Positions 6,282-42,683 of a stretch of 64,000 nucleotides of DNA are shown here, piece by piece. Numbering within the stretch: position 1 is the first letter of the stretch; every line of letters starts with the position of its first letter. The notes beneath the pieces were generated by a model. It searched no databases and was not told the origin of the DNA. It saw nothing but the letters and a program-made list of their open reading frames with translations. Source of the DNA: Rickettsiales bacterium (lineage in GTDB: Bacteria; Pseudomonadota; Alphaproteobacteria; Rickettsiales; RGZB01); NCBI GenBank assembly GCA_044356525.1, contig JBIKVZ010000001.1, positions 416,562 to 480,561 of the forward strand. Reading direction: 5' to 3'. A program made the translations under genes and the position numbers.

Positions 6282-6552
6282 AAGGGGGGTACGATAGACA
6301 AGCTACCCTCTCTCTTCAAGCAATAAACCAATTCATTTTTAAGCATCACCTTACTACTTAATAAATAATAATATTTATAAATAAGTCTTTAGTAAGATTA
6401 GTAGGTTGTGAGCATAAGATGAATTACGAACATACGAACAAGATGTTTATTAAAAAAAAAAAATGAAAATTACTTGAGTAAAAGAGAGAACAACTCAAAA
6501 ACCTATTTGAAATAAAATAGAAAAAACAAATGTGAACTCTGTGGGTTATTAT

Positions 6553-6561
6553 TTATCCACG
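6553..6561 (+). promoter_or_regulatory. DnaA box, 8/9 match (TTATCCACG)
   Basis: Read directly; consensus TTATCCACA. Confidence 0.6.
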
Positions 6562-6593
6562 GATTTCACAAAAAGAAAAAAAGCCTATCTACA

Positions 6594-6602
6594 TGTGGAA
6601 AA
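6594..6602 (-). promoter_or_regulatory. DnaA box, 8/9 match (TGTGGAAAA on + strand)
   Basis: Read directly; complement of consensus is TGTGGATAA. Confidence 0.5.
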
Positions 6603-6644
6603 CATATGTGACAAGCATCGTGAAATATGGGATAAAAAGCAGCA

Positions 6645-6653
6645 TGTGGATAA
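6645..6653 (-). promoter_or_regulatory. DnaA box, perfect (TGTGGATAA on + strand)
   Basis: Exact reverse complement of TTATCCACA. Confidence 0.75.
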
Positions 6654-6699
6654 ACACACCACTTATTCATTTTTTATACAGCACCTTTTAACATTACGC

Positions 6700-6708
6700 T
6701 GTGGATAA
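6700..6708 (-). promoter_or_regulatory. DnaA box, perfect (TGTGGATAA on + strand)
   Basis: Exact reverse complement of TTATCCACA, 10 bp upstream of the PDRP start codon. Confidence 0.75.
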
Positions 6709-6717
6709 CATCAGTAT

Positions 6718-15067: not shown

Positions 15068-16282
15068 ATGCCAAATATTATCGAACAAGCAACGCGTGCA
15101 ACGCTGGGTCTGGATTTAACCGCTCCCTCCACGGTGGAAGAATACCTCGGTTCTATCCTGATAAGCGGCTTTCTTGTTTCAAACCGTATCATTGACGGCA
15201 CCTCCGGCAACGACATCATCCAGCCCACACTAACGACCACGAATTATATTTTCGGCTTCGGTGGTGACGACGTGCTTTATTCCACCACTGCATTAGGCCA
15301 GACCACGGCGGCGATTCTTTCCGGCGGCAATGGTGCGGACCGTTTTGTGTATGGCACCAATGCAGGCACGGCTCTGGTAGGCACTCTTTCCGGCAGCGTG
15401 CTTGATTTCAGTGTGTCCGATGGTGACGTGATTGATTTGCGCGGAACGGGCCTTGCATTCTCAGACCTTACCATCACCCAAAATGCCAACAACACCAGCG
15501 CGCAGGTGCAGGGCACCGGCATTAACATCGTGGTTTCCGGCACAGACGTTACGCTCACCAGCACTAACGTGCTCACCGATGGTGCAGGCAGCGGCGGCAC
15601 CACGGGCACTTCGGGCGCGGATAATCTTTCCGGCACTACGGGCGATGATGATATTTCCGGCGCGGAAGGCAACGACACCATCACCGCGTCCTCAGGTAAC
15701 GACGACGTAAACGGGAATGCAGGCGCAGATAGCGTCTCTGGCGGCGAAGGCAATGACACGGTGCAGGGCGGGCGCGATAACGACCCGTTCGTGCAGGGCA
15801 ATGCGGGTGCCGACAGCGTAAACGGCAACCTTGGTGACGACACGGTGTTTGGCGGTCAGGGTAACGACACCGCCCGTGGCGGCCAAGGCAACGATAGCGT
15901 GAATGGCAACTTCGGTGACGACACGGTGTATGGCGACTTAGGTGCGGATATTGTGCGCGGCGGTGGCGATAACGACACCATCAATGGCGGCGGCGGTAAC
16001 GACACGATTTACGGCGACCGTGGTAACCATACCCTCACGGGCGGCGAAGGCGCGGACGTATTTGTGTTTAATGCCAGCCATGGCACAGACGTAGTAACGG
16101 ATTTCACGTCCGGTAGCGACATCATCCAATTAGCCTCCGCGCTATTTGCCACGGCAGCGGATGCGGTTGCGGCGCTTACCTATAGCGGCGGGGATGCAAT
16201 CCTCACCACCAGCGGCGGCACCATCACCCTTGATAACATCACCGATGGCAGCCTCACGGCGGCGGACTTTAGCATCGCCTAA
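15068..16282 (+). CDS. RTX-type calcium-binding repeat protein (probable type I secretion substrate)
   Basis: More than ten tandem GGxGxDxxx nonapeptides (GNDTITASSGNDDVNGNAGADSVSGGEGNDTVQGG...). No signal peptide. C-terminal non-repeat tail. Confidence 0.85.
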   Translation: MPNIIEQATRATLGLDLTAPSTVEEYLGSILISGFLVSNRIIDGTSGNDIIQPTLTTTNYIFGFGGDDVLYSTTALGQTTAAILSGGNGADRFVYGTNAGTALVGTLSGSVLDFSVSDGDVIDLRGTGLAFSDLTITQNANNTSAQVQGTGINIVVSGTDVTLTSTNVLTDGAGSGGTTGTSGADNLSGTTGDDDISGAEGNDTITASSGNDDVNGNAGADSVSGGEGNDTVQGGRDNDPFVQGNAGADSVNGNLGDDTVFGGQGNDTARGGQGNDSVNGNFGDDTVYGDLGADIVRGGGDNDTINGGGGNDTIYGDRGNHTLTGGEGADVFVFNASHGTDVVTDFTSGSDIIQLASALFATAADAVAALTYSGGDAILTTSGGTITLDNITDGSLTAADFSIA

Positions 16283-16438: not shown

Positions 16439-17887
16439 ATGGAACCAAGTCTACAGCTACGCGCTGCGGTCTACGCGCCCCAAGATGTCGTTTATTTAAG
16501 AAATGACGGGCGTATTAGTTTTAGCCCCCGTGGCATCTATCGAGAAAAAAACTCACATGAATTTGTTATTTCACCGAGCGCGGACATTGCCTACTTAGGC
16601 AAAGAAGAATTCCACCCATCACGCAAAAAAGAAACCACCGAGAGGCTGATGCGGATTGCGGCTGAAAAGCTGCCCCACGCCGCAGGCTATGGATCAACAC
16701 TGGTTGATTATTTGGAGGGGCTAATGGAAATTGCCCTCGCGTCGAATATCCTAACCCGCACCGGTGAGCCTGCCGACCAAAAATTAATGTTGGGCCTCTT
16801 AAAGGGCACCACAAAGTTTGATGAGGTTCAGGCTCGTATTGCTGAATTAATGGAAAAAATTCCAGAAGCAGAGCGGCAGGCATTTCTTGAGCCGACAGAA
16901 AAATATGCACTAAACACGGCGGCAAAAGAATTGCATTGGCTGGGCTTTAGTACGGCTGATATTGAGCGTGTGTTACAAGAAGATTCAGAGAATAACGACG
17001 CTACGCGGGCGTTCTTTTCACAACAGTGCTCGAGTGGCTTAGGGGGGCTTGCCACTCAGCAGGTGGCAGCATCATTGTTTGATAAAGTGTCGGGCGCTGT
17101 TGGCCGTGAAATGGGCTTACATGCGCCGATTGCGTTTAGCTTTACTGTCGATAACATGGGCACCCACTCTACAAATGAGACCCATGCGCCGTGGAGCTTT
17201 CCCGCCAGCAATGCCGCGCGGGAAAAGTTGTTGAGCACGTTTGCGGCCTTTGACCCCGATACAAAAAAGCTGCTCGCACAGCCACTGCAGGACCCCAATT
17301 ACAAAGTATTTATGGTGCCTGACATGCACCTTGCCAGCGTGCTACCCCGATTTTTAGATGCAGCCCACGCCTGCCAAGGTGGCCATCATCCGGCGGAGAA
17401 AATAGTGTATGTGGCGACGGAAACGCCAACGCGGGAGAAGCGTAATTTCGACCGTAGTTTTGGCCGCCCGGCACCTTTTTTTGTCAAAGAATTTCAATAT
17501 GAATATATCCCGCACCCGCGTGCGGGTGACATCCGCCACACAACGGCAGAAGAACTAAGTCACGGCGCTATGCATATGGTGTTTGAAAATGCCGGATTTC
17601 CTTATAGCAAAAACGACCGTGCCGCGCGGGCTGGTATTGAAAAACTAGGCGCGCAACTGCAGCAGAACCCAGAGCTACAAGGCTTGCTTCAATATGGCCA
17701 CGGCTTCGATCACAAGGCATTGCTGCACCTTGAAATGCCTGTAAAGGCCCTTGCTTTCCGTGCCGTAGAGGGTGATGCGAAGCTGCGCCAAGCATGGCCA
17801 GAAATGGCAACATTTGTGGAGCGTTTCATGCTTGAGCACGCCAAGAAAATTATGCAGCAGCGCGAAGGCGGCACCGGCGTCGTGTAA
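16439..17887 (+). CDS. hypothetical protein (482 aa)
   Basis: Track ORF with RBS GGGAGAAAATG. No recognisable domain. Confidence 0.55.
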   Translation: MEPSLQLRAAVYAPQDVVYLRNDGRISFSPRGIYREKNSHEFVISPSADIAYLGKEEFHPSRKKETTERLMRIAAEKLPHAAGYGSTLVDYLEGLMEIALASNILTRTGEPADQKLMLGLLKGTTKFDEVQARIAELMEKIPEAERQAFLEPTEKYALNTAAKELHWLGFSTADIERVLQEDSENNDATRAFFSQQCSSGLGGLATQQVAASLFDKVSGAVGREMGLHAPIAFSFTVDNMGTHSTNETHAPWSFPASNAAREKLLSTFAAFDPDTKKLLAQPLQDPNYKVFMVPDMHLASVLPRFLDAAHACQGGHHPAEKIVYVATETPTREKRNFDRSFGRPAPFFVKEFQYEYIPHPRAGDIRHTTAEELSHGAMHMVFENAGFPYSKNDRAARAGIEKLGAQLQQNPELQGLLQYGHGFDHKALLHLEMPVKALAFRAVEGDAKLRQAWPEMATFVERFMLEHAKKIMQQREGGTGVV

Positions 17888-17974: not shown

Positions 17975-18018
17975 GCTCGCGTGGCGGAATTGGTAGACGC
18001 AAGGGACTTAAAATCCGT
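17975..18018 (+). pseudogene. 5' half of an intronless tRNA-Leu(UAA) gene (truncated; no variable/T arm follows)
   Basis: GCTCGCGTGGCGGAATTGGTAGACGCAAGGGACTTAAAATCCGT gives acceptor 5' strand, D arm and anticodon loop CTTAAAA. The stem strand AGGGA does not pair with the following TCCGT. It does pair with TCCCT at 29651 and 31210. Confidence 0.75.
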
Positions 18019-18187
18019 GTTGGCTAACGGCACTGTTTTTAATCGGGCGTGAATTATAGTTGAATTATTGATGGTTAGCAAAAACGACAAAATGAGGTAA
18101 AACTGAAAAATGGAGGCGAAACATCACCGGAACATCACCAGATAGAAATTGGTGTTTATAGGAATGTGTAGTAATCCATAAAATTAA

Positions 18188-18495
18188 GCTCGCGTGGCGG
18201 AATTGGTAGACGCAACGGACTTAGGATATTGAGTGCTCTGGTGGAAATGCCAGAAGTAGAACTGCTCAAATTCGGGGAACGCTCTCAGGTAATGCTGGTG
18301 CCAATCCCGAGCCAAGCCTTGAGGAAACTCAAGGAAGGTGTAGAGACTAGACGGGCAGCACCTAAAACCGCAAGGTCATGGTGAAGGTATAGTCCAGACC
18401 CCAAACATCCTAACGGGTGGCGGCTAAAGCCGTGGTAGGTAAGAAAATCCGTCGGGGGTTTCCCCATACCGGTTCGATTCCGGTCGCGAGCACCA
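18188..18495 (+). tRNA. tRNA-Leu(UAA) interrupted by a group I intron (copy 1)
   Basis: Exon 1 is 18188-18222, exon 2 is 18444-18495. Joined, the exons fold as a class II cloverleaf: GCTCGCG/CGCGAGC acceptor, ACGGA-CTTAAAA-TCCGT anticodon arm, long variable arm, ACCGGTTCGATTCCGGT T arm and encoded CCA. Confidence 0.85.
18223..18443 (+). ncRNA. group I intron (IC3, Azoarcus/cyanobacterial tRNA-intron type), 221 nt
   Basis: Inserted after U34 (5' exon ends ...GGACTT) and ends in G before AAAATCC. The conserved core strings TCAAATTCGGGGAA, CCGAGCCAAGCC and GAAGGTGTAGAGACTAGACGGGCAGCACCTAAAACC match the catalytic core of known bacterial tRNA group I introns as I remember them. Confidence 0.85.
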
Positions 18496-18574
18496 AATTA
18501 TCTAAGTCAATGGCTTACCTAATAACAAAAAACTCTTCTTTTATAGCTAGATTGAACTTCCTGGTTTTTTGGTT

Positions 18575-19420
18575 CTAGCTCCGCTCAGGTTGTGTCGCCA
18601 AAAACTCTCTTACCTCAGCAAGTTTCCTGCGGCTCACAGGAATTGTTTTGTCCATCGACAACACCACACTGCTTTGACCGTTTTTCTCTTTAATGGACTC
18701 TATGTGCTTAGACGCCGCCCAATACGACCGATGCGTTAGAATTCCACTATACTCTGTTGGCAATTGAGCAATCGCGTCTTTTAGGTTATGCAACACCAGC
18801 GTTTCACCCCTCGATGTTACTACGCGCACATAATGCAACTCTGACATCATGTAGATAATATCAGTGCCAATTAGCTTGGCAAATTTAGTGATAAATTCGC
18901 CTTTGCTTTGTGAAGTTGGATCGGCTGGCTTATCAATGGTCACATCCGGCCGGGCTGTTTCATCGGGTTGAACCAAGGTGGTGCTTGAAAAATTAAGCTG
19001 CAAAATGCGCGGCGCATTCATTCCAGCCCATGTCAGTAAAACGGGTGCAAAAACACCGCCGATTTCCTCGAATATAATTTCTTGAGCTTGTGTAAAACTT
19101 TCAACCTGTGACCAATCATCCAGTCCCATCACATAATCAATGCCCAAGGAAAAAGGCAGAAAAACCAGACATCCAAGCAGTCCGGAGAGCAGAATCTTAA
19201 GCCAATCATTCAGCCGGTCAAAAAATGGGCTTTGTTGCAAGCCCACATGAAACAGAATGAGGCACGGCACTAGAAAACCGATTTGAAGTGTCCAGATGAG
19301 AAGCCGTATCAAAAAAGAGCTTCCTGACGTTCCGGCAGGTTCAAGAAAAGTAAATAGCAGGATCAGAATAACACTGAACCAGAAAAAGTATTTTTTCGTT
19401 GAAATATCATTGATTATCAT
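18575..19420 (-). CDS. membrane-anchored LytTR-domain DNA-binding protein
   Basis: 281 aa. N-terminal half has about 5 hydrophobic helices. The C-terminus ELHYVRVVTSRGETLVLHNLKDAIAQLP...THRSYWAASKHI is LytTR-like. Confidence 0.7.
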   Translation of the reverse strand: MIINDISTKKYFFWFSVILILLFTFLEPAGTSGSSFLIRLLIWTLQIGFLVPCLILFHVGLQQSPFFDRLNDWLKILLSGLLGCLVFLPFSLGIDYVMGLDDWSQVESFTQAQEIIFEEIGGVFAPVLLTWAGMNAPRILQLNFSSTTLVQPDETARPDVTIDKPADPTSQSKGEFITKFAKLIGTDIIYMMSELHYVRVVTSRGETLVLHNLKDAIAQLPTEYSGILTHRSYWAASKHIESIKEKNGQSSVVLSMDKTIPVSRRKLAEVREFLATQPERS

Positions 19421-19582
19421 TTGTCTAGCCGCTTATTCGTTGGTGCCTTTCGTGCATAAAACCTGCCGCCCGTGCATAGCCAGTTGATTCATATAAATCC
19501 AGCCAGTTACATGCGCGTGATTAGTTCGCAGTATTACCGCCAATGAATTTAATGCACAACCACTTACTATAGGAACATCACT

Positions 19583-20248
19583 ATGATAAAAAACATTTTT
19601 TTATTATTAATCGCAATGACATTTGCGACATCGCTTTCCAGCACCGCTTTTGCCAATGACAGTGGAAAATGGTACGGAAAACTCTACGGCGGTTCGTCTA
19701 TTTTAGGCGACCAGACGATTAAACAAACCGGTGTTGCCGCTGCGGGTGCTACTGGCAAAAATGACAATGATAGCGGTTTCCTTGCGGGCGGATCTGTTGG
19801 CTACCACTATAACAACAACCTTTCTGCTGAGCTGGCTTGGGATTATATCACGAACGATGCTACCAATAAATTCTCTGACGGCACAAACTTCAATGATGGC
19901 GATTTTTCATCCAGCATTTTCTTCCTGAATGGACGCTATACCTTCGATCCTGTCATGCAAACGAAATTTCGTCCTTATCTGGGTGCTGGTATCGGATACG
20001 TCCAAGAAATCGACATGGACTTAAATGCTGGCGGTGTGGAAACATCCTACAGCAAGAGTGGTGAATTGGCCTATCAGCTCATGGCAGGTGCGTCCTACGC
20101 GATGACTAACAGCATCGATCTAGATGCAGGCGTTCGTTACGTCCGCGTGGATAGCATCAATCTCAAACGTGAAGGTGGCACAGGCGAATTACGAAACGTG
20201 GATTATGATCCTTTGCTCTTCACCATCGGAGCGAGCTACAAGTTTTAG
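19583..20248 (+). CDS. outer-membrane beta-barrel protein (OmpA-like/OmpW-like porin family)
   Basis: Signal peptide MIKNIFLLLIAMTFATSLSSTAFA, alternating-hydrophobicity strands, C-terminal ...GASYKF. Confidence 0.7.
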   Translation: MIKNIFLLLIAMTFATSLSSTAFANDSGKWYGKLYGGSSILGDQTIKQTGVAAAGATGKNDNDSGFLAGGSVGYHYNNNLSAELAWDYITNDATNKFSDGTNFNDGDFSSSIFFLNGRYTFDPVMQTKFRPYLGAGIGYVQEIDMDLNAGGVETSYSKSGELAYQLMAGASYAMTNSIDLDAGVRYVRVDSINLKREGGTGELRNVDYDPLLFTIGASYKF

Positions 20249-20453
20249 ACACGATTTGAATCTTTGGGTGGGAAGTGTTTTGTGCATTGGCTTCCCACCC
20301 AATGGGCGAGCATAAGATTTTGCACAAACTAAAGTTTACGCTCAGCTTATCAGAATAACGCTGGGCACATGGCGCAAGAAAACCGAACCAGAAATACAAT
20401 CGACTGGCTATGTAGTTCATATAGGCACGATTGAAAAATCCTATGGCGATAGA

Positions 20454-20633
20454 ATGATTCTGCGCGATCAGACGGGCAAGCGCATTGGCACCATCGAAGA
20501 AAGTTATGGTGGCAGAAAAACAGTGCGCGATAATCATTACCGAACGCAATATCGCATTGAGCAAGGTTTTGGAGACAGGCTTATTATTCGAGACGCTACA
20601 GGCAAAAGAACTGGCAGTGTTGAATCCAGATAG
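20454..20633 (+). CDS. small repeat-containing ORF (59 aa), possibly a remnant of a longer gene
   Basis: Three repeats of about 20 aa, (S/G)(Y/F)G(D/G)R-x3-RD-x2-GKR-x-G. The same frame is open from 20316 without a start codon. Below the track's length cut-off. Confidence 0.3.
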   Translation: MILRDQTGKRIGTIEESYGGRKTVRDNHYRTQYRIEQGFGDRLIIRDATGKRTGSVESR

Positions 20634-20695
20634 TCACCTGTCAGAATCGGTCGCATGTTCCGATTCTGGATTTTTCACACGCCCGTTATTGTCGG

Positions 20696-22012
20696 ATGAT
20701 CATTGTAAGAGTTGCAGCACTAACCATTAACAAGGAGTGTGTATCCGAGCAACTGATAGGGCTTAAGCAAACGCAGGATTCAATTCAGTCAGATATTTCT
20801 GTATTAGCCGCAGTAACTTCTGGGCAATTAGACGAAGATCTAACAATTTATTCAGCAGTACCATATTTAATGGAGGGGAGCTCCGAAGAGCTAAACGCAG
20901 AAGTTGCTGCGATATTAAACCCTCTTTTGGTGAAGTTTCGTGGCGAAATCTTGGGCAATCTCAAGCCACTTAAAACTAAGTACGATAATGCTCTCGCCTC
21001 TGTAACAGTAGATATCGCTAAACTTGAGCCAGAGCTAAAACCCATTCTTGATAAAATAGCAAAATCTGCCCCTTTGCGAGAAATGGCTGCCGCTGTTAAA
21101 GCTGAGAAAGAAAAGCTCATTACAGTTCTGACGCTAGAAGCCGATATCAGTAAACTGAAGGCAAAGATAGTTTCTTCAGCCGAAGTTATTAATGGATTTA
21201 TTGACAAACGCTTGGAATTGGCTGGCGCAGTAATGCGAGTGATGACAGAGCACCCAGTTTCACGTGGTGACGACCAGCTCAACATTGACATCAAGCCATT
21301 TCTAAAGAGCGCACATATTCAATCCTTGCTTAAGGACCGCATAAAATATCAGAGCAATCTAGAAATTCGTGAGATTGTGCAAACAGCAGAGCCTAAAGAT
21401 ACTGACATCGATGGATATAGGAAGGCAGTAGAGTTGCATGTAAAACAGTCCATTGAAGAGAAGCTAGAATTTAAGGGTGAATATAATCTTTCAGGTGTCT
21501 TGCAAGAGGTCTTAGGTAACGCCTTTTACCTTAATTATGATTTAATGTTACGTGGTGATTCTTTCCGCATAATGTCTCCTGGAAAACGCGCGCTTGCCTT
21601 ATTAAGAATCATTGTTGAACTAGATTCTAGCGAACACCCAATTATTTTAGATCAGCCAGAAGACGATTTAGATAACCGCTCAATTTATGAAGGACTTGCC
21701 ACATACCTAAAATCAAAAAAACAATCTCGTCAGATTATTGTTGTTACTCACAATCCTAATGTCGTTGTCGGTGGTGATAGCGAATATGTTGTTGTTGCTA
21801 ATCAGACTGGTCAAGAGTCAAATCAAGATAATAGAGAATTCAGGTTTGATTATGTATATGGCGGTCTAGAATTGAGCTTCTTTGATGATGCGATACCCTG
21901 GGTTTTGGAACAAAAAGGTATTAAGGAGCATGTTTGCGAAATTCTAGATGGAGGGAAAGACGCTTTCCAGCGACGCGAACAGCTCTACTCCACACTTAAA
22001 GGCAGCACTTAG
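20696..22012 (+). pseudogene. 5'-truncated SMC/ABC-type (TrlF-like) AAA ATPase: coiled-coil plus C-terminal half only
   Basis: ABC signature-like SPGKRALALL, Walker B/D-loop PIILDQPEDDLD and H-loop VVTHNPN are present. No Walker A P-loop occurs anywhere in the ORF or upstream. Confidence 0.55.
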
Positions 22013-22174
22013 AGCGATTGCCTGTCAAAGGGTCAAATTTATGCACCGGTTTATTCGCCTAGAAATGATCTTGAAAGATTTCAATCTGTCCTTTGACACA
22101 AACTCAATCATCTTGACCAACACCGCACTTTTGATTATTGCTCAGAAATCAAACAGCAATAATTGAGGTGTGGT

Positions 22175-22690
22175 ATGCCGCGAGGTGGAAGACGTAAAGG
22201 ATCTGGAAGACCCGCAGGAACCGGTCAGTTTGGAGCTCCGACAAAGTCCATTCGAGTGCCTGTTGGCATGGTCGATAATGTTTTGGAGTATGTGCGGCTG
22301 AAGGGCTTTGCCCTCCCGCTTTATTCCTGCGCGGTATCGGCAGGGTTTCCTTCACCGGCTGATGATCACATGGACGGCAAGCTGGACTTGAACGACCACC
22401 TGATTAAGCACCCCGCCGCCACCTTCTTCGTGAAGGCTACTGGTGAATCAATGATCGGCGCGGGAATTCATGATGGCGATATTCTCATCGTGGATCGCAG
22501 TGTTGAAGCAAAGAACGGTAAAGTGGTAATTGCCGCCATTGATGGTCAGCTCACAGTGAAACGGCTTTCCACCCGACGCGGCAAATCTTGGCTGATGCCT
22601 GAGAACGAAAAATACCAGCCGATTGAGATTAAAGAAGGCAACGATGTTGTCATTTGGGGCGTAGTAACAAACGTCATCCACGCACTGTAG
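22175..22690 (+). CDS. umuD: UmuD-like S24 peptidase (Pol V accessory subunit) with basic N-terminal extension
   Basis: AGFPSPADD, GESM (Ser nucleophile) and VIAAIDGQLTVKRL (Lys). ATG 22175 follows RBS GAGGTG. The N-terminus MPRGGRRKGSGRPAGTG is extra. Confidence 0.85.
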   Translation: MPRGGRRKGSGRPAGTGQFGAPTKSIRVPVGMVDNVLEYVRLKGFALPLYSCAVSAGFPSPADDHMDGKLDLNDHLIKHPAATFFVKATGESMIGAGIHDGDILIVDRSVEAKNGKVVIAAIDGQLTVKRLSTRRGKSWLMPENEKYQPIEIKEGNDVVIWGVVTNVIHAL

Positions 22691-22699
22691 GGGTATCTC

Positions 22700-23968
22700 A
22701 TGCCCATCTTTGCCTTGGTTGATTGCAACAATTTCTACGCCTCCTGCGAGCGCGTTTTCAATCCGAGTCTGGAAGGCAAGCCAATCGTCGTTTTGTCGAA
22801 TAACGATGGCTGCATCATTGCCAGGTCGAATGAAGCCAAAAAGCTCGGCATTCCGATGGGAGGCGCATTTTACTCGCAGAAGGATGTTTGCAGAAAACAC
22901 GGCGTGCATGTGTTCTCGTCAAACTACCAGCTGTATGGCGATATGTCGCAGCGTGTGATGGAAACATTGCGGCACTTTGTGCCGGATATGGAGGTGTATT
23001 CGATAGATGAAGCCTTCCTGTGTTTAGATGGTTTCAGCAGCCGCGATTTGAATGACTACGCGCTAGAAATCAGAAGTGCTGTAAAGCAGTGGACTGGGGT
23101 TCCTGTATCGATCGGCATCGCGCCAACCAAAACACTTGCAAAGGTTGCCAACCACATTGCCAAGAAGCGCACCACTTCAGGTGTTTACAGCCTGCTTACG
23201 CGTGATGAGCAAAATGCCGCCCTTGCCAATCTTGATGTCGAAGAAATATGGGGTATCAGCTCACGCTGGGGCGCACAGCTTAAACAGCGCGGCATTCATA
23301 CTGCCCTACAGCTAAGAGAAGCCAATCCTAAGCTGATACGTCAGCACTTCAGCGTTGTGGGTGAGCGTATCGTAGAAGAACTCCGTGGCAACTCCTGCAT
23401 GCCGCTAGAGATGCACGTTGCGGCTCGAAAGAACATTCTATCGTCCAAGTCTTTTGGGAAGCTGGTTGCTGATCTGCCATCGATTGATGAGGCCTTGGCA
23501 AACTACGCTGCCCGCGCGTGCCTAAAGCTGCGGAAGCAAAAGAGCCGCGCCCAAGGGATTTACGTTTTCGTCCGAACGAATCCTTTTCGAGTTCAGGAGC
23601 CACAGTATCGGAATGGCATGTCCATAGGGTTTTCGGTTCCCACCAGCGACACACGTGCAATCGTTAAAGCCGCAAGCCAGTGTTTGTATCGAATCTATCG
23701 CCCAGGTTTCCGCTACCACAAAACGGGAATTATGCTGCTCGATCTAATTCCAGAATCACACGTGCAGCAAAACCTGTTTTTGAACGTCGATCATAGTCAC
23801 AGCGACAAGCTCATGGTGACGCTGGATAGTCTCAATGAGCGCATGGGTAAAAATACCGTCTTTCTGGCATCGCAGGGCATAAAGCGTGGTTGGCAGATGC
23901 GCTGCGATAATCGATCCCCGCGATATACGACAAATTGGGACGAGTTGGCATTTGCGCGCTGCATTTAG
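22700..23968 (+). CDS. umuC: Y-family DNA polymerase V catalytic subunit
   Basis: MPIFALVDCNNFYASCERVFNP, VVLSNNDGCIIARS, SIDEAFL. Confidence 0.9.
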   Translation: MPIFALVDCNNFYASCERVFNPSLEGKPIVVLSNNDGCIIARSNEAKKLGIPMGGAFYSQKDVCRKHGVHVFSSNYQLYGDMSQRVMETLRHFVPDMEVYSIDEAFLCLDGFSSRDLNDYALEIRSAVKQWTGVPVSIGIAPTKTLAKVANHIAKKRTTSGVYSLLTRDEQNAALANLDVEEIWGISSRWGAQLKQRGIHTALQLREANPKLIRQHFSVVGERIVEELRGNSCMPLEMHVAARKNILSSKSFGKLVADLPSIDEALANYAARACLKLRKQKSRAQGIYVFVRTNPFRVQEPQYRNGMSIGFSVPTSDTRAIVKAASQCLYRIYRPGFRYHKTGIMLLDLIPESHVQQNLFLNVDHSHSDKLMVTLDSLNERMGKNTVFLASQGIKRGWQMRCDNRSPRYTTNWDELAFARCI

Positions 23969-24022
23969 GCGTATGGTTTAGGGGTAACGTACAGTATCAT
24001 CGGCATAAAGATTGTAGGATTT

Positions 24023-24589
24023 ATGAAGGCACTTAATCAAAGAATTACAGGATGGTGTGCAGCAGTAATGGCGCTGATACTGCCCCTATCGCCGTGCCTT
24101 GCAAAAGACGAAAGAAAAATTCCTGTTCCAGTCGAGGTATGGAGAGATGTTTCTACCAAAGAGCTGACGATTGCTGGCATTGGTAAAGCCAAAGACGGTG
24201 ACACCCTCTCCATAGACGGCGTTTTTGATGTGCGCCTGATTGGAATTGATGCGCTGGAAAGAAAGCAGACCTGCTCAATGAATGATGAAGCGTGGAAATG
24301 TGGCGAAGAAGCAAAAGCACTACTTGCAGAACTGGTCGATAATAAGCGGGTCGAATGTGAGAACCGAAAGAAAGAGAAATATGGCCGTTTTCTGTCAGTT
24401 TGTAGAGTTGGCGATATCGTTTTGAATGATGAAATGGTCAGACGCGGCTACGCAGTAGCCTACATGGTTCCTGATTATGTGGATGCCGAAGAAGAAGCAA
24501 AGCTCTCACAAGTGGGCGCATGGGCTGGTGATTTTTTAATTCCTGATGAATGGCGAAAGCGCAAACGCCAGAAAGTACGAAGTTTATGA
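24023..24589 (+). CDS. secreted thermonuclease (SNase-like) family nuclease
   Basis: Signal peptide. DGDTLSIDG..VRLIGIDALE, YGRFLSVCRV and NDEMVRRGYAVAY match the staphylococcal-nuclease fold pattern. Confidence 0.8.
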   Translation: MKALNQRITGWCAAVMALILPLSPCLAKDERKIPVPVEVWRDVSTKELTIAGIGKAKDGDTLSIDGVFDVRLIGIDALERKQTCSMNDEAWKCGEEAKALLAELVDNKRVECENRKKEKYGRFLSVCRVGDIVLNDEMVRRGYAVAYMVPDYVDAEEEAKLSQVGAWAGDFLIPDEWRKRKRQKVRSL

Positions 24590-24909
24590 GCATATCGGTA
24601 AATCAGAAAGAGTTGATTAAGGCACTCCAGCCACCAAAAATGAAGCGCGGGCAGATTCCAAAAATCACTGAGATTCGCGGTTCATTTTCAAGTGACTTGA
24701 TAATCACTGCGCCCGCCCACGAATCCCGCTTACAGGGAAAAGGTACATTCCCTTATCATGTGACCGCCAATGCGCGCATAATACATGAAATGGTGAAGAA
24801 GCTACCGAAGTCAGAAAATGTTGAGTTAGATACACTAGAAAATCAGATTCTATTTCGTATCGGTAGCTTTGTTTTGAAGTTTAATGCGGTTGAAATTCGC
24901 AGCCTGTAA
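24586..24909 (+). CDS. hypothetical protein (107 aa)
   Basis: ATGA overlap with the nuclease stop suggests translational coupling. No recognisable motif. Confidence 0.45.
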   Translation: MSISVNQKELIKALQPPKMKRGQIPKITEIRGSFSSDLIITAPAHESRLQGKGTFPYHVTANARIIHEMVKKLPKSENVELDTLENQILFRIGSFVLKFNAVEIRSL

Positions 24910-25621
24910 AACGAAAAAAAGCCCCGAACCTTTCGGCTCGGGGCGATTGCTAGGGAGGGATAATAACTTCTGATCTGGCTGGATTGTTGGGCATCAACGC
25001 GTCATTGTTGAGCTTGGTGTTAAGCGTGACAATGCCGATGCAAAAGACGTGGTAGCGGATGAAATGGAAGCTGCGTGAGAGAGACCGAAGCCGGATGGCC
25101 GAATGAGGCTGTCCGGCTTTTTTTAGTGATTCGGTTATTCCAAAGAGGCTGCGCAAAATCCTGCAAGTGCGAGCAATTACAATGCCTTGCTGTGATTGTG
25201 TCAGAATTGGAAAATTCCTACCAATCCCACTTTTGAGGGTGTTTTTGACCAAAAGTAGGGTCATTTAGGGGTAAAATCATGTCCCAGTGATGTACCAACA
25301 GGTACCGAAATTCGGAAATAAGGCAAAAAAAGGTGGGCGGAAAGCAATCACGCTTCCCGCCCGAGCTGCACTGGGAGGATAACCGGCCAATAAAAAACCC
25401 AGCGTGGGGATGCCAGCTGGGTGGGGTACGTAATTTTCCGATTATGCTAAGATCATAGCTAACGGCGTGACGCTATGCAAGTGTTTTTATTGTAGTTCAA
25501 TATGTTAGCAAGTTTGCAAACGGTGACAATCCTGCAATTCACGTCATCAACGGGCATAACTATCTGGGTTTCAAAGCATATTATCCTTGCATTTTGAACA
25601 TTTAATCATCAGAATACTAGA

Positions 25622-26782
25622 ATGACATTGCCCCGCCACACACTCACTCAGCAGATTGAACATGCGCTTTCGCGCAATCCCGTGGTGTCGCTTATTGGCC
25701 CTCGTCAGTGTGGCAAGACAACACTCGCACGCGCCATTGGAAAATCTCAGGACGCAACCTTCTTTGATCTTGAACACCCTGTTGATGCCGAGCGGCTAAA
25801 AAATCCGCTCACCGCGCTCGAACATTTGCGAGGATTAGTGGTTATCGACGAAGCGCAGTTGGAGCCAGCCTTATTTCCCGTGCTGCGCGTGCTGGCTGAC
25901 CGCACACCACTTCCTGCACGGTTCTTACTTCTGGGCAGTGCTTCTCCTGATTTGGCGAGCAACATTTCAGAATCACTGGCTGGCAGGATTCACTTCGTGA
26001 ATATGTCTGGGTTCAACCTGCATGAAGTGGGTGCTCCGCATTGGCGAGAGCTTTGGCATCGCGGCGGTTTTCCTCGCTCATATCTGGCAGAATCAGATGC
26101 AGATAGCTTCAAATGGCGTGAGGATTTTATCGCGACATTTTTGGAGCGCGACCTGCGCCGCCTTGGAGTCATGGTGGCACCAGAATCGCTACGTCGGCTA
26201 TGGATGATGATCGCGCATTATCATGGGCAAGTGGCAAAGCTCTCTGATATTGGGCGGTCGCTGGGAGAAAACCACACCACGATCCGCCGTCATCTGGATA
26301 TTCTGGAAGGTGCATTGGTGCTCCGCCAGCTTCAGCCTTGGCATGAGAATGTTGGCAAACGGCAAGTCAAATCGCCGAAAGTATATGTGCGCGATACGGG
26401 TATTCTGCACACGCTACTTGGTTTGGGAAATGCCGCCACGATTGAATCACACCCAAAACTTGGTGCAAGCTGGGAAGGGTTCATCACCGAGCGAATCATA
26501 GAGATGTTCGGTGATCGTAATTGTATGTTCTGGGCAACCCAAGCGGGAGCGGAGCTTGACCTGCTGGTATTGCATCAGGGCAAACGCTACGGCTTTGAAA
26601 TTAAATACGCCGATGCGCCAAAAACCACCAAGTCCATGCGCGAGGCAATTAAAACGCTTGAACTCACCAAGCTGTTTATTGCGTATCCAGGCAGCAAAAG
26701 TTATGTGGTGGATGAACATATTGAAGCAGTTGGCATTGTGGATTTAGAAGCAAAGCTGAAAAACCTCATTGCATCATCATAA
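25622..26782 (+). CDS. AAA-family ATPase with DUF4143-type C-terminal domain
   Basis: Walker A GPRQCGKTTLA, Walker B VVIDEAQ. The C-terminal EIKYADAPK segment is typical of the AAA_14/DUF4143 family. Confidence 0.8.
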   Translation: MTLPRHTLTQQIEHALSRNPVVSLIGPRQCGKTTLARAIGKSQDATFFDLEHPVDAERLKNPLTALEHLRGLVVIDEAQLEPALFPVLRVLADRTPLPARFLLLGSASPDLASNISESLAGRIHFVNMSGFNLHEVGAPHWRELWHRGGFPRSYLAESDADSFKWREDFIATFLERDLRRLGVMVAPESLRRLWMMIAHYHGQVAKLSDIGRSLGENHTTIRRHLDILEGALVLRQLQPWHENVGKRQVKSPKVYVRDTGILHTLLGLGNAATIESHPKLGASWEGFITERIIEMFGDRNCMFWATQAGAELDLLVLHQGKRYGFEIKYADAPKTTKSMREAIKTLELTKLFIAYPGSKSYVVDEHIEAVGIVDLEAKLKNLIASS

Positions 26783-27359
26783 ATCTGTCTTCAGCGTTGG
26801 CGCTGAGACCTGTTACGCTTACGTTGCTGCTCTTTGTACATGGCTTCGTAGATGCTGGATAGATCGTCCAGTACGAGGCTGATGAGCTTCTTGCCTGAGC
26901 GCCTTGGCCACTGCGTCCATTTTTCCAGCGCGTCCACCGCGATGCCCTCTATGCACACCTGATAGGCATCCAATCAATGTCCAGCGGAACAGCCAAGATT
27001 GTTGATATTCGTGATGCCAAAAAGAATGAGAAATGAAACATCACCGAAACATCACCGGAACATCACGAGGGATAGAAATCGATAGTATTTGATAGCAAGC
27101 AGTAGTGATAGGGCAAGCCAAAGAATTTACGAAAAAGCCTTTATATGTAGTCACTTGGATGGTTCTATAGGTGTCTGTAGGAATGTGTGAAAAAATCATT
27201 TTGTTCGTCTTAAAAGGACACAAAATCCTTTTCGTCTAAGGTGGATTGTGTTTGTAAATGAAGGCGTTATAAAAGGAGGGCAAGGCGGATTTTGTTCCGA
27301 AACATCACCGGAACATCACCGAAAAAAGAGTGGTGTAACAGTTTGATTTTAATAGATAA

Positions 27360-27658
27360 GCTCGCGTGGCGGAATTGGTAGACGCAACGGACTTAAGACA
27401 AAAGGATTGAGTGCTCTGGTGGAAATGCCAGAAGTAGAACTGCTCAAATTCGGGGAAGCCTGTAACATGGTAATCCCGAGCCAAGCCTGAGAGAAATTTC
27501 AGGAAGGTGTAGAGACTAGACGGGCAGCACCTAAAACCGAAAGGTCATGGTGAAGGGATAGTCCAGACCCCAAACGGGTGGCGGCGAAAGCCGTGGTAGG
27601 TAAGAAAATCCGTCGGGAGTTAAATCCTGTACCGGTTCGACTCCGGTCGCGAGCACCA
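27360..27658 (+). tRNA. tRNA-Leu(UAA) interrupted by a group I intron (copy 2)
   Basis: Exon 1 is 27360-27394, identical to copy 1. Exon 2 is 27605-27658, with a different variable arm (CGGGAGTTAAATCCTGT) and a T loop TTCGACT. CCA is encoded. Confidence 0.85.
27395..27604 (+). ncRNA. group I intron, 210 nt (diverged paralog of 18223-18443)
   Basis: Same conserved core (TCAAATTCGGGGAA, CCGAGCCAAGCC, GAAGGTGTAGAGACTAGACGGGCAGCACCTAAAACC). Indels and substitutions are confined to peripheral stem-loops. Confidence 0.85.
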
Positions 27659-27714
27659 ACTTGTTTTGAAATTTAAGTGTTGATTTTCTAAATAAGAGAT
27701 GTATAAACACCTCT

Positions 27715-27826
27715 GTCTTAAGGGAGTAACCTGCTCTCCAGTTTGGAGAATGGACGCGTCAACATACTTGCCACAGTGCTGGCATGGCGTGTCCCACCAG
27801 TAAATCGGTGCGGTGAGACTTACGAC
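27715..27826 (+). ncRNA. yybP-ykoY-like manganese riboswitch (tentative)
   Basis: AAGGGAGTAAC..., ...CGTCAACATAC... and ...GGTGAGACTTAC resemble the conserved GGGGAGUAG / UUGACAUAC / AGAGACC blocks. The closing helix is GTCTTAAG/CTTACGAC. It lies directly upstream of a UPF0016 gene, a classic regulon member. Confidence 0.55.
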
Positions 27827-27903
27827 GAAGTGGTTCGCTCAGGGTTGGGCGGAAACACTTTGTCGTATGGTCATCAACCATCGCCCAACCCACTGGTGTT
27901 TAT

Positions 27904-28464
27904 GTGCAAGTACTTCTTTCATCCGCTTCCCTCGTTGCTGTTGCCGAAATGGGCGATAAAACACAGCTGCTTGCGCTCATGCTTGCAGCGCATTATGGCC
28001 GCGCCATACCCATTGTTCTGGGCATTACGCTCGCCACCACACTCAATCACCTTGCTTCCGCTTGGCTTGGTCAGACCATTGGCGTGAATTTCAACTCCCC
28101 CCAGTTTTCACTGGCAGTTGGTGTTCTCTTCATCGGTATCGGGCTGTGGTTGCTTAAGCCAGACACGCAAGATTCCATCAGCAATAAGTTCCTGCGTTTT
28201 AGCCCATTTGTAGCTAGTTTCATCGCCTTTTTTCTGGCAGAGATTGGTGACAAAACACAGCTCGCCACCATTGCGCTTGCCAGCGAATACCAAGCCCTGC
28301 TGTGGGTAACGCTTGGCACCACGATAGGTATGCTCATCACCAATATTCCTGCCGTTTTTCTCGGCGAGGCATTCATCGCCAAAATACCCATGAAGCTGGT
28401 TCGCAATCTCGCATCGCTTGCCTTCATCGGGTTTGGCTTTTATCAACTCATTCAATCATTTTAA
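27904..28464 (+). CDS. UPF0016 (GDT1/TMEM165/MneA) family cation (Mn2+/Ca2+) transporter
   Basis: Two E-x-GDKTQ motifs (VAEMGDKTQLLA, LAEIGDKTQLAT) in a 6-TM protein. GTG start. Confidence 0.85.
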   Translation: MQVLLSSASLVAVAEMGDKTQLLALMLAAHYGRAIPIVLGITLATTLNHLASAWLGQTIGVNFNSPQFSLAVGVLFIGIGLWLLKPDTQDSISNKFLRFSPFVASFIAFFLAEIGDKTQLATIALASEYQALLWVTLGTTIGMLITNIPAVFLGEAFIAKIPMKLVRNLASLAFIGFGFYQLIQSF

Positions 28465-28478
28465 GTAAGGAGACTTCC

Positions 28479-29465
28479 GTGAATTATTCGTTACATCAAA
28501 CCATTCAATCTGAGGCACCTTGCAAGCTGTGCGGTGGCCATGAACTGCAAGTGATCGGTACGCAGGGAAGGCATTTCCAGAAACTCACCACCACCATCTG
28601 TACGGGTTGCGGTCTGATTCATAGCTACCCCATCCCAACCAAAGAGGAACTAGACGAATATTACAGCAAGCAATATCGCAGCGATTACAAGGGTGCATAC
28701 ACGCCCCAGCGCAAGCATATCCTTCGTTATTCGCGTGGGGCGATGCACCGCATTAAGCAGCTGCTTCAGTTTGCAAGCAAAGGCCAGAAGCTGCTGGATG
28801 TAGGCAGTGGTAGTGGTGAGTTTGTGTATATCGCATCGCTGTCTGGCTTTGATGTGCATGGGCTCGAGCCTCACGAAGGCTATTCAGAATATACCCGCAA
28901 AACCTTTGGCGTCCCCATCATCACCGCGCCGCTTGAAAAGGCAGATATTGCGCCTGAAAGCTATGACGTCATTACACTCAACCATGTGCTCGAGCACCTT
29001 CATTACCCGCTAACTTCACTTGGTTATTTAAACCGCTGGCTCAAAATGGGCGGGCTGCTCGCAGTCGATGTGCCCAATATAGCGTCAACACATCATTCCC
29101 CCATCAATCGCTTCCACTACGCACATTTTTATAATTTCAACCATGATACGCTCAAAGCTATGCTTGAGAAATCAGGTTTCACAGTGGAAGCACATCCTGA
29201 CTTTAGTGGCACCACGCTATTCGCCAGAAAGACAGGCGCTCCTGATCCTGAACGTATCATCGCAATGCCAGAGAATTATCAGCGCTTGCTGCATCTGATG
29301 TCGAAAGAAGTGGCAACCGAAAACTACCGTAAGAAAAAACCACTCAAGCGGTTCTTAAGCAAATGCCGACGTTATCCACTGGAGTTCATCGAAGCGATGC
29401 TATTTTGGAATCCCCGTCGCATTGTCAAAAGAGAATTCAAAAAGGCAAATGGTAGTTTTATGTAG
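28479..29465 (+). CDS. class I SAM-dependent methyltransferase with N-terminal CxxC..CxxC zinc ribbon
   Basis: Motif I LLDVGSGSGEF, then ITLNHVLEHL. GTG 28479 follows RBS TAAGGAGA. The track start 28302 would overlap the transporter gene. Confidence 0.75.
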   Translation: MNYSLHQTIQSEAPCKLCGGHELQVIGTQGRHFQKLTTTICTGCGLIHSYPIPTKEELDEYYSKQYRSDYKGAYTPQRKHILRYSRGAMHRIKQLLQFASKGQKLLDVGSGSGEFVYIASLSGFDVHGLEPHEGYSEYTRKTFGVPIITAPLEKADIAPESYDVITLNHVLEHLHYPLTSLGYLNRWLKMGGLLAVDVPNIASTHHSPINRFHYAHFYNFNHDTLKAMLEKSGFTVEAHPDFSGTTLFARKTGAPDPERIIAMPENYQRLLHLMSKEVATENYRKKKPLKRFLSKCRRYPLEFIEAMLFWNPRRIVKREFKKANGSFM

Positions 29466-29496
29466 TGGTTTGGATAAGGTAAGTGGATGTATGAGC

Positions 29497-29700
29497 CACT
29501 TTTCTCAGGGACACTGGCGGGACACTAGAGGGTAAATAATGAGCACAAATGGCAATAGGTGGCAATCAAGCGAACCTTCTGTAACCCGCTGTGGCGTTGT
29601 TGTGTATCGTTATGGATTGTTGTGGCGTGTTTTATACAAAGGACTTAAAATCCCTCGAAGGTTAAACTTCGTGCCGGTTCGATTCCGGCCGCGAGCACCA
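29497..29700 (+). repeat. Repeat A copy 1: conserved ~145-bp arm plus 3' half of tRNA-Leu(UAA)
   Basis: Tandem GGGACACT x2, then GGGTAAATAATGAGCACAAATGGCAATAGGTGG..., and from 29641 GGACTTAAAATCCCTCGAAGGTTAAACTTCGTGCCGGTTCGATTCCGGCCGCGAGCACCA. Confidence 0.85.
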
Positions 29701-31036: not shown

Positions 31037-31056
31037 AGACTGTAAGCGAAAAAGCC

Positions 31057-31259
31057 CCATTTTCTAGGGACACTACAGGGACACTAGAGGGTAAATAATG
31101 AGGACAAAGGGCAATAGGTGGTAATCAAGCGAGCCTTCTGTAATCCGCCGTGGCTTTGTTAAGTAGCGTTATAGATTGTTGTGGCGTGTTTTATGCAGAG
31201 GACTTAAAATCCCTCGAAGGTTAAACTTCGTGCCGGTTCGATTCCGGCCGCGAGCACCA
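31057..31259 (+). repeat. Repeat A copy 2 (arm plus 3' half of tRNA-Leu)
   Basis: Aligns with copy 1 along its full length with scattered substitutions. The tRNA 3' half (31200-31259) is identical to copy 1. Confidence 0.85.
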
Positions 31260-33119: not shown

Positions 33120-33378
33120 AGATTGCCTCCTAATTCAGGCTATACCCCGCCTTATTATTCTATGCGCAAGTAGTTAAAGAATGGTTAAAAATTAGCGCCT
33201 ATCGCATCTATTGTTATTTTTGAGGGCAATAGTGGGGGCGGCAGGTATGCCGCTGGCACGATAAGAAGATTAACCTACGCCAAGCGATGCAATCATCGGC
33301 CTGAGAATGATGGGCGCACCTTGTTCAATAGAAGGGGACTGCTTGAAGAACCCTAAGAGCTAATTGTCATTTATTTAG

Positions 33379-33529
33379 TTTTATTCTCAGGGACACTACA
33401 GGGACACTAGAGGGTAAATAATGAGCACAAATGGCAATAGGTGGTAATCAAGCGAGCCTTCTGTAACCCGCTGTGGCTTTGTTCTGTAGCGTTATGGATT
33501 GTTGTGGCGTGTTTTATGCAGAGGACTTA
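33379..33529 (+). repeat. Repeat A copy 3 (arm only; ends inside the core at GGACTTA)
   Basis: Same GGGACACT x2 and downstream arm. Homology stops at 33529 and no tRNA 3' half follows. Confidence 0.8.
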
Positions 33530-33762
33530 TGCGGTAGTCCAGCGCCACCCTAAAACTATCAGGTGAGAAATCAGGTATGGGGGCATCTCTTTAATAAAAG
33601 ATTTGAATTATTATTATTTAGTACCCTGGGCGCAGAGATGCAAAATATTTTTACCCACAATCTGATTTTAGTTAATAAATATTCTGTCTAGTTGAGGGGT
33701 GGTATATGAAGTCTTTGAATGACGAACTTCAACTTCATCTGAAGTAAGTTCAGATTCTTGTT

Positions 33763-34293: not shown

Positions 34294-34315
34294 ATTTTTA
34301 CACAAGGAGAGCTTT

Positions 34316-34846: not shown

Positions 34847-35042
34847 GCGGGGCATCCATCGGAATACGCTAGAAACCATAGTCCAGGGGTTTTCCCTTCT
34901 ACCGCAGCTCTTCTGTGATAACAAAGAGCTCGTATTCAATTTTAGGGCCGAGATACGGCCTTTTTTAAAAGCCTCTATGTCCCAATTGGGATTAAAATTC
35001 CTATCCTTATAGGAATTTATCATCGTGGCTAGTGCCTGGAAA

Positions 35043-35062
35043 GTTGGCTGAGACTAGGACTC
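35043..35062. repeat. distal att repeat of the tRNA-Gln island
   Basis: GTTGGCTGAGACTAGGACTC versus GTTGGCTGGGAGACTAGGACTCGAACC at 44075-44101 (3' end of tRNA-Gln). Confidence 0.7.
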
Positions 35063-35168
35063 ACATTTAAACATTAAGTATCTGTTATATAATAATAGTT
35101 AGTAATACACTTTCCTGATGTGCCCCCAAATATGCCCCCAGCCCACTCAGTTGGGGACTTGTCAGGCC

Positions 35169-37799: not shown

Positions 37800-37812
37800 T
37801 TTACTTCACCAC

Positions 37813-39720: not shown

Positions 39721-39754
39721 TAATTACCCCGCAAACATAGTCAGCTAAGCCGTA

Positions 39755-41328: not shown

Positions 41329-41342
41329 TCTACCATCCCGCC

Positions 41343-42677: not shown

Positions 42678-42683
42678 GCTGCT

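Follow-up and report, generated by a model that had tools for sequence, protein, structure and literature searches.

Bacterial group I introns in transfer RNA (tRNA) genes mostly lack a homing endonuclease, and their horizontal transfer has therefore been considered probably infrequent (2026 survey, PMC13011429). The classical type, Leu.3Ug, known from cyanobacteria and plastids (Nostoc/Anabaena PCC 7120), interrupts tRNA-Leu(UAA) between U34 and A35 (CUU/a...g/AAAA), has U at position -1 and a terminal G, is small and carries no endonuclease gene (bioRxiv 10.1101/2020.01.27.920355; PMC13011429), and the same literature puts classical bacterial tRNA introns in subgroup IC3 and 81% of tRNA introns in IC. 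Here we describe a 64,000-nucleotide stretch of the genome of a Rickettsiales bacterium (GCA_044356525.1, contig JBIKVZ010000001.1, positions 416,562 to 480,561 of the forward strand), which we refer to as the window, in which a 221-nt group I intron interrupts, after U34, a complete tRNA-Leu(UAA) gene at 18188-18495 (copy A). Among introns of the classical Leu 34/35 type it is an ordinary one, interrupting the same tRNA at the same point and likewise having U-1, a terminal G, a small size and no endonuclease gene, but its host is an alphaproteobacterium and the gene lies on an insert that destroyed an intronless resident. The likeness to cyanobacterial introns is one of tRNA and position; the pattern with which we searched for homologues was designed to exclude the cyanobacterial core.

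The IC3 introns of Azoarcus tRNA-Ile(CAU) and Agrobacterium tRNA-Arg(CCU) are also small bacterial tRNA group I introns, but they occupy other tRNAs and are inserted at 36/37; the core motifs of the window intron, AAAUUCGG..GAA, CCGAGCCAAGC and GGUGUAGAGACUAGACGG, presumably resemble those of the Azoarcus intron. No link of the Azoarcus and Agrobacterium introns to integrative elements is reported in the accessible literature, and we found no papers that link intron-bearing tRNA genes to integrative elements, as island-borne substitutes, in a literature search that was incomplete.

Classical tRNA-targeting islands (Islander, PMC4383910) share with this locus an anticodon-centred attachment (att) site, a split target, a displaced fragment and tandem arrays, and they carry a tyrosine integrase adjoining the left attachment site (attL), as do the relatives of the window's elements but not the window insert itself. 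Such islands regenerate their target from a partial gene copy, the island providing the 5' part of the gene where a 5' fragment is left behind (PMC4383910), whereas here the target is left destroyed and its substitute is an entire gene with its own putative promoter; the core at attL is followed by a hairpin and unrelated DNA, with no partial gene copy that regenerates the target. The nearest precedent found is an archaeal layout. In PMC4033280, Caldiarchaeum is cited for a tRNA fragment followed by a 1.8-kb recombinase insert and a tRNA gene (Sugahara 2012), and split and intron-containing tRNA genes are cited as a hypothetical impediment to integration (Randau and Soll 2008). The order of fragment, recombinase and complete gene is the same, as is the idea that an interruption of the anticodon removes the target, but the archaeal cases concern protein-spliced introns or split genes and a host gene that is protected, whereas here a mobile element carries the interrupted gene.

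Intron homing by a homing endonuclease has the same net outcome, an intronless locus becoming an intron-bearing one through events targeted to the intron insertion site. In contrast, our locus has no endonuclease open reading frame (ORF) and does not involve gene conversion: its intronless allele was cut in two, and a complete foreign gene appears to have been added by site-specific recombination. Endonuclease genes occur only in introns >500 bp (PMC13011429), and no endonuclease ORF was found inside either intron of the window, in which 221 and 210 nt leave no room for one.

A resident tRNA-Leu(UAA) gene split by acquired DNA

Copy A is accompanied by a second complete intron-bearing tRNA-Leu(UAA) gene, at 27360-27658 (copy B), with an intron of 210 nt (Table 1). 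In an Rfam scan of the window, RF00028 (Intron_gpI, gathering score 50 bits) matched 18213-18417 with 57.6 bits (E = 5e-12) and 27385-27580 with 55.8 bits, and a profile built from 81 homologues gave 205 bits for copy A (E = 2e-62) and 193 bits for copy B (nhmmer); the match to the copy A intron is far above chance expectation. ARAGORN called neither gene in the raw window, and called both once they were spliced in silico, as tRNA-Leu(taa) of 87 nt (A) and 89 nt (B) with perfect cloverleafs, anticodon UAA, a long variable arm, A73 and a CCA end. Both genes look functional from their sequences, and both introns are predicted to splice.

Upstream of copy A lies a displaced 5' half of another tRNA-Leu(UAA) gene, which in the repeat search reads through CTTAAAATCC without an intron and ends, at 18004-18016, in a 13-mer core, GGACTTAAAATCC, equal to tRNA positions 30-42. 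This core occurs exactly three times in the window, in the 5' fragment (17975-18016) and in two displaced 3' halves (29641-29700 and 31200-31259), each of which terminates a 207-nt repeat unit. Joined at the core, the 5' fragment and either 3' half yield a perfect 89-nt intronless tRNA-Leu(UAA), whose anticodon stem, AGGGA/UCCCU as opposed to ACGGA/UCCGU in the intron copies, differs from theirs by a compensated change. The intron position, 34/35, falls near the centre of the 13-nt core.

The empty site is present in the relative GCA_964467255.1 (L130). ORF482 (16439-17887), the last gene of the core ahead of the fragment, has an orthologue of 82% identity in this genome, directly followed by an intact intronless tRNA-Leu(UAA) from which our reconstruction differs at a single, compensated pair of the variable arm. 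Between the two genomes, nucleotide homology stops at window position 18016 and resumes at 29637 and again at 31200, and we therefore regard 18017-29640 as inserted, with a repeated segment reaching 31199. The resident intronless gene is split by this insertion in its anticodon stem-loop, and the crossover appears, from the extent of the core, to have taken place within tRNA positions 30-42. We also sought the empty site in metagenome contigs of other strains, in which either the same island was present or the contig broke in the repeated exon.

The original prediction had described copy A as a tRNA-Leu(UAA) gene interrupted after U34 by a 221-nt group I intron, and the sequence is as described, with a spliced tRNA of 87 nt, all of the quoted core motifs, a covariance score above the gathering score and a P1-P9 fold with U.G at the 5' splice site (see below). 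It had further proposed horizontal carriage on accessory DNA, for which the empty site in the relative is direct evidence. Its account of the locus was correct as to this single gene, and overlooked copy B, the split native 5' half and the two 3' halves.

Intron fold and covariation

Homologues were gathered by a pattern scan, and 81 of them were aligned for the structure and the profile. RNAalifold recovered from this alignment the exon anticodon stem, P1, P2, P3, P4, P5, P6, P8 and P9 to P9b, and P7, which forms a pseudoknot with P3, was added by hand. The resulting 13-helix structure, P3/P7 pseudoknot included, has standard pairs in 97.7% of cells, compared with 81.9 +/- 0.3% in shuffled controls (0/500 shuffles reach the observed value) and 31-44% in slid controls. 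Double-sided changes are present at 41 pairs, P7 shows an exchange between A-U and G-C in 12 sequences, and a U.G pair stands at the 5' splice site in 80 of the 81 homologues, a C-G pair in one. The search pattern fixed GTAGAGACTRGACGG and GAAAATC, including part of P7/J7-3, and required a G before AAAATC, so the invariance of the homologues at these positions is imposed by the pattern.

In copy A, P1 is formed by CUUA pairing with UGAG, with U34.G at the splice site, and all 60 consensus pairs are standard. Copy B is missing just the peripheral P9a hairpin, and the differences between the copies in P5 and P6 are compensatory; the terminal G is G18443 in copy A and G27604 in copy B. Every core helix is intact in both copies, and both introns keep the fold of the family.

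Recurrence of the architecture and a tyrosine integrase family

The pattern scan of one genome per species gave at least 120 matches, which were verified by in-silico splicing and an ARAGORN call of tRNA-Leu(UAA) split after U34; at least 101 passed, mostly from Alphaproteobacteria. Hosts among the matches listed are mostly Rhodobacterales, Caulobacterales, Hyphomicrobiales and Sphingomonadales, and also include Acidobacteriota, Eremiobacterota, Burkholderiales and Gammaproteobacteria. For the gammaproteobacteria, a tRNA-Leu(UAA) intron was reportedly described in J. Bacteriol. in 2002. The expectation, in the original prediction, that a Leu(UAA) intron would be unusual in a proteobacterium is thus not supported, in view of the number of verified species, and 34/35 tRNA-Leu introns have already been recorded from Pseudomonadota in published surveys (PMC13011429; bioRxiv 10.1101/2020.01.27.920355).

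The window's architecture is found again in many genomes, in which a dedicated tyrosine integrase is often part of it. Of 102 verified loci, 23 have a second copy of the 5' exon upstream, in the same orientation, and about 19 of these duplicates are truncated intronless 5' halves that end in the anticodon loop (...GGACTTAAAA), at a distance of 170 nt to 1.5 kb from the intron-bearing gene. The spacers of ~1.5 kb between fragment and gene encode a conserved protein of 390-457 aa, which we assign to the tyrosine integrases because of its matches in PHROGs ('integrase' at 1e-33 in 7/7 members) and Pfam (Phage_integrase in 5/7, a SAM-like N-domain in 6/7); its profile has no sequence match in the PDB, and a weak match to XerA is all that NCBIfam gives. 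By tblastn, at least 16 loci, in both Alphaproteobacteria and Acidobacteriota, have the integrase immediately upstream of their intron-bearing gene.

The association was also examined from the side of the integrase, by a profile scan of metagenome contigs that gave at least 579 relatives, the best 80 loci of which were analysed. An intron-split gene is present on the same strand within 600 nt downstream in 42 of the 71 loci with enough downstream sequence, and a truncated tRNA-Leu 5' half is present just upstream in 45 of the 64 with both flanks, a complete tRNA-Leu occupying that place in one. Thirty elements target tRNA-Leu(UAA), and their substitute is intron-split in 27, intronless in 0 and missing or decayed in three. 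In the 15 elements that target tRNA-Leu(CAA) the corresponding numbers are five, four and six, the five intron-split substitutes being one UAA gene and four tRNA-Leu(CAA) genes with C at -1. These four (metagenome loci L298, L311, L329 and L331, with the same integrase family and split CAA targets) represent the Leu.3Cg introns of Williams, which have C at -1 and number 72 cases in Proteobacteria, whereas the window copies are of the U-1 (UAA) type. All four intronless substitutes, which come from two lineages only, have a mutated core, whereas all 32 intron-split substitutes retain GGACT(T/C)...AAAATCC.

Locus L301, from the metagenome scan, contains a second complete element, with a fragment, an integrase, an intron-split gene and two native copies of the core plus 3' half 6.3 and 10.7 kb away; a tRNA-Leu(UAA) can be rebuilt with either 3' half, and its acceptor stem is not the same as the substitute's. 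A strict search found no native 3' halves in the 8-kb genome loci, the elements being longer than those loci. Candidates for such halves were rejected: a downstream 3' fragment in L050 does not match the 5' fragment of that locus, and the fragments in the Eremiobacterota loci L070 (~4200-4310) and L071 (~4570-4690) are T-arm plus acceptor pieces of tRNA-Leu only. The latter stand ~4 kb downstream of the intron-bearing gene, and look like the trace of a classical island inserted at the 3' end of that gene.

Plasmids and phages

An intron-split tRNA-Leu(UAA) gene that has escaped annotation lies next to aac(3)-IId and a tmrB-like AAA ATPase on more than 1,200 plasmids, most of them conjugative resistance plasmids of E. 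coli, Klebsiella, Salmonella and Acinetobacter. One of them is pCTX-M3 (L001, NC_004464.2), with the intron-split gene at ~61824-62127. The plasmid gene is structurally intact, yet scores below the Rfam cut-off. Its nearest sampled relatives are chromosomal and belong to Hyphomicrobiales (Enterovirga, 92%), with homology that reaches the upstream arm of the element, and this similarity hints at an alphaproteobacterial origin for the flank of the aac(3)-IId resistance module.

The same gene is frequent in viral contigs: those in IMG/VR (L133-L252) yielded 79 verified intron-split tRNA-Leu(UAA) genes among the 120 matches listed. The viral copies often stand in tRNA clusters of up to 30 genes, without an adjoining integrase or tRNA fragment. 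Partial matches (H31-H39) came from Agrobacterium phage Atu_ph07 and from uncultured-phage records of 0.6-0.7 Mb.

Interpretation of the locus

We consider it likely, with a probability of roughly 80%, that the window contains two functional-looking intron-split tRNA-Leu(UAA) genes on acquired DNA that split the intronless resident gene and supplies substitutes for it. In the mechanism we propose, site-specific recombination at the shared core would place foreign DNA in the anticodon stem-loop of the resident tRNA-Leu(UAA), destroying that gene without regenerating it from a partial copy, and the element would supply a whole substitute tRNA-Leu gene, usually an intron-split one. At the RNA level, guanosine would attack behind the P1 U.G pair, and exon ligation, in which the terminal G takes part, would then give a normal tRNA-Leu(UAA). 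The best-supported reading of the window is that it holds decayed, tandem, integrase-less members of this kind of element, whose recombinase presumably acts in trans or was lost.

Several findings weigh against this interpretation. Beyond the tRNA site, on its downstream side, the relative and the window have nothing in common, so that only the displaced 3' halves define the far boundary of the insert. Pfam searches of 18017-29640 revealed no integrase, and the window has no homologue of the integrase family found beside intron-split genes elsewhere; the mobility of its elements is therefore unproven, and they are possibly decayed. The region is also a mosaic, in which two cassettes are accompanied by an additional arm remnant and by the right arm in three copies. 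Of the chromosomal intron-bearing genes sampled, moreover, about three quarters have neither a fragment nor an integrase nearby.

This last point, together with the frequency of intron-bearing tRNA-Leu(UAA) genes in Alphaproteobacteria, is what would be expected of an ordinary chromosomal intron inherited vertically, the nearby tRNA pieces being unrelated debris. Such an origin is very improbable for the window, however, and is already contradicted by the relative, which is intronless at the same position and whose homology breaks exactly in the anticodon stem-loop; in addition, the fragments rebuild a native gene down to the compensated stem pair, and the DNA between them has a lower GC content and accessory cargo. 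We give as little credence to a mini-element that brings a 5' exon and intron only and recombines at AAAATCC, leaving a chimeric gene with the native 3' exon. Islander does list 159 islands with a displaced 5' fragment, a minority class (PMC4383910), and the fragment lies close to the gene, at 170 nt to 1.5 kb upstream, but the 3' exon pairs perfectly with its own 5' exon in 18/18 loci tested, where the displaced fragment would mismatch in the anticodon stem (at least 10 loci) or the acceptor stem (at least 5 loci), and the native 3' halves lie far downstream both in the window and in L301. The chimeric model was rejected on this exon-pairing test, and because the 3' exon matches its own 5' exon and not the fragment, the intron-bearing gene is foreign as a whole. 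It is also unlikely that both genes are non-functional relics and that a working tRNA-Leu(UAA) lies elsewhere in the genome. The decayed, integrase-less state of the region would suit relics, as would the loss of P9a in copy B and a scan for a promoter-like site ahead of that copy that found none; set against this are core helices that are intact in both copies, differences between the copies that are compensatory, exons that give perfect cloverleafs with A73 and CCA, and the destruction of the only native gene seen at the locus. We infer that copies A and B are the cell's only working tRNA-Leu(UAA) genes.

The odds seem to us evenly balanced on whether the intron is a mere passenger, without a part in recombination, of elements that need a whole substitute tRNA-Leu gene and happened to capture an intron-bearing allele. 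In favour of a passenger, the intron-split gene also occurs in phage tRNA clusters that have neither an integrase nor a fragment close by, intronless substitutes are present in some elements with this family of integrase, and introns are rarely lost precisely, so that persistence requires no selection. A passenger would not be expected to sit near the centre of the 13-nt core, to be present in every one of the 27 substitutes of UAA-targeting elements, to accompany the kept cores and be missing from the mutated ones, or to have its fold kept by compensatory change across integrases just 50-60% identical. More tentatively, the intron may act at the DNA level, splitting the attachment core (CTT/AAAATCC) and so shielding the substitute from attP, attL and attR and from rival elements, in which case the elements would be integrase-driven vehicles that turn intronless tRNA-Leu loci into intron-bearing ones, a form of 'homing by proxy'. 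Without an intron, the substitute would present another perfect att core at a distance of a few hundred bases from attP, and an intron in the middle of the core would remove that core in DNA at no cost at the RNA level. The mutated cores of intronless substitutes and the kept cores of intron-split ones fit this insulator idea; that the contrast comes from two intronless lineages, and that phages carry the gene as plain tRNA-cluster cargo, weighs against it.

Whole intron-split tRNA-Leu genes carried on integrative elements, conjugative and resistance plasmids and phages provide a concrete and common route of transfer, and a large family of tyrosine-integrase elements, in Pseudomonadota and Acidobacteriota, installs them exactly where the intronless allele is destroyed. 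The patchy distribution of the 'ancient' tRNA-Leu intron should be reread in this light, and a testable reason is offered for the position of the intron in the anticodon loop. If the role at the DNA level were true, it would explain both the spread between phyla of tRNA introns that lack an endonuclease and their seat in the anticodon loop. In annotation practice, standard tRNA finders miss intron-split genes, and displaced halves are open to mis-annotation.

Layout and cargo of the inserted DNA

Table 1 Features of the split tRNA-Leu(UAA) locus, with positions in the window
Feature	Position	Strand	Basis and remarks
Displaced 5' half of resident intronless tRNA-Leu(UAA), attL side	17975..18016	+	Direct repeat of 5' exon, family D5
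Inserted DNA with both intron-bearing genes	18017..29640	.	~11.6 kb; Pfam, GC, absent from L130
Predicted terminator hairpin GTGTTGGCTAACGGCAC + T-run, first bases of insert	18017..18043	+	Terminator scan
Two AACATCACC direct repeats, 11-nt period, upstream of copy A	18118..18140	+	Kept upstream of copy B and in L056
Promoter-like site TTTATA-18-TAAAAT	18155..18184	+	Consensus match only; ends 4 nt before copy A
Copy A 5' exon	18188..18222	+	tRNA positions 1-34, ending ...ACGGACUU (U34)
Copy A group I intron	18223..18443	+	221 nt, terminal G; RF00028 57.6 bits; 60/60 pairs; U-1.G in P1
Copy A 3' exon	18444..18495	+	A35 to encoded CCA; start = AAAAUCCGU
Extra copy of upstream arm (AACATCACC x3 ... 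TAGGAATGTGT), no tRNA gene	27034..27200	+	Repeat family D3
Two AACATCACC repeats upstream of copy B	27299..27320	+	Repeat comparison
Copy B 5' exon	27360..27394	+	Sequence comparison, in-silico splicing
Copy B group I intron	27395..27604	+	210 nt, terminal G; RF00028 55.8 bits; nhmmer 193 bits; P9a hairpin deleted
Copy B 3' exon	27605..27658	+	In-silico spliced product 89-nt tRNA-Leu(UAA)
Right arm of insert, first copy of 207-nt unit, GGGACACT x2 at 11-nt period	29494..29640	+	Repeat family D1
Core plus displaced native 3' half, attR side	29641..29700	+	95.3% identical to 3' part of intact L130 gene
Second right-arm copy (31053-31199), then core + native 3' half (31200-31259)	31053..31259	+	96.8% identical to L130
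Third right-arm copy, ends GGACTTA then diverges, no tRNA 3' half	33376..33529	+	Repeat search

The inserted DNA has a GC content of 43-50%, compared with ~53% in the core genome, and its cargo comprises, by Pfam, a LytTR regulator, an outer-membrane protein, an SMC-like ATPase, UmuD/UmuC and a nuclease, and further an AAA_14 ATPase, a Mn-riboswitch-like element with a GDT1 gene, and a methyltransferase. The riboswitch, of yybP-ykoY-like type, scores 42.5 bits (cut-off 45) at 27709-27897, after copy B, and stands directly upstream of the GDT1/UPF0016 cation transporter gene at 27904-28464.

The hairpin that begins the insert would, if it is the terminator its sequence suggests, bring transcription of the truncated native half to an end. 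L056, the cassette's closest relative, has the same layout of fragment, core, hairpin box, two AACATCACC repeats and gene, its box GTGTCTAACGACAC being homologous to the hairpin of the insert and lying at the same place; no cargo common to L056 and the window was found. The extra copy of the upstream arm, in which the three AACATCACC repeats occupy 27034-27066, is probably the remnant of a decayed tandem element. In the right-arm units the GGGACACT repeats lie at 29508-29526, 31067-31085 and 33390-33408, with a period of 11 nt. The AACATCACC repeats may be arm sites of a recombinase or a promoter or regulatory element, and the GGGACACT repeats may likewise serve as arm sites of a recombinase or in regulation. 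We considered whether a third intron had left a remnant behind the third right-arm copy (~33.5 kb) and dismissed this, as the 81-intron profile finds just the two copies in the window.

Genome context

The gene order in the origin-type context is hemH-hemE, a gap at 6282-6717, and aroE-coaE-dnaQ-secB-metE-guaB. The gap next to hemE has 30% GC and four DnaA boxes, two of which are perfect TTATCCACA motifs, a composition consistent with a chromosomal replication origin; TTAA-N7-TTAA sites were not found within it. This agrees with the alphaproteobacterial, hemE-type origin context that the original prediction had named.

An RTX calcium-binding repeat protein gene at 15068-16282 is absent from the otherwise syntenic L130. 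ARAGORN calls a tRNA-Ala(AGC) at 17026-17098, inside ORF482, which has no Rfam tRNA match even at a permissive threshold and is probably a false positive. More mobile DNA, which takes in the third right-arm copy, lies at 33376-44149, where the minus strand encodes a type III restriction-modification pair (35169-39720), an integrase (39755-40843) with a helix-turn-helix (HTH) protein (together 39755-41328), and a P4-type integrase (42684-43949) that adjoins a tRNA-Gln gene (44076-44149), both integrases lying outside 18017-29640.

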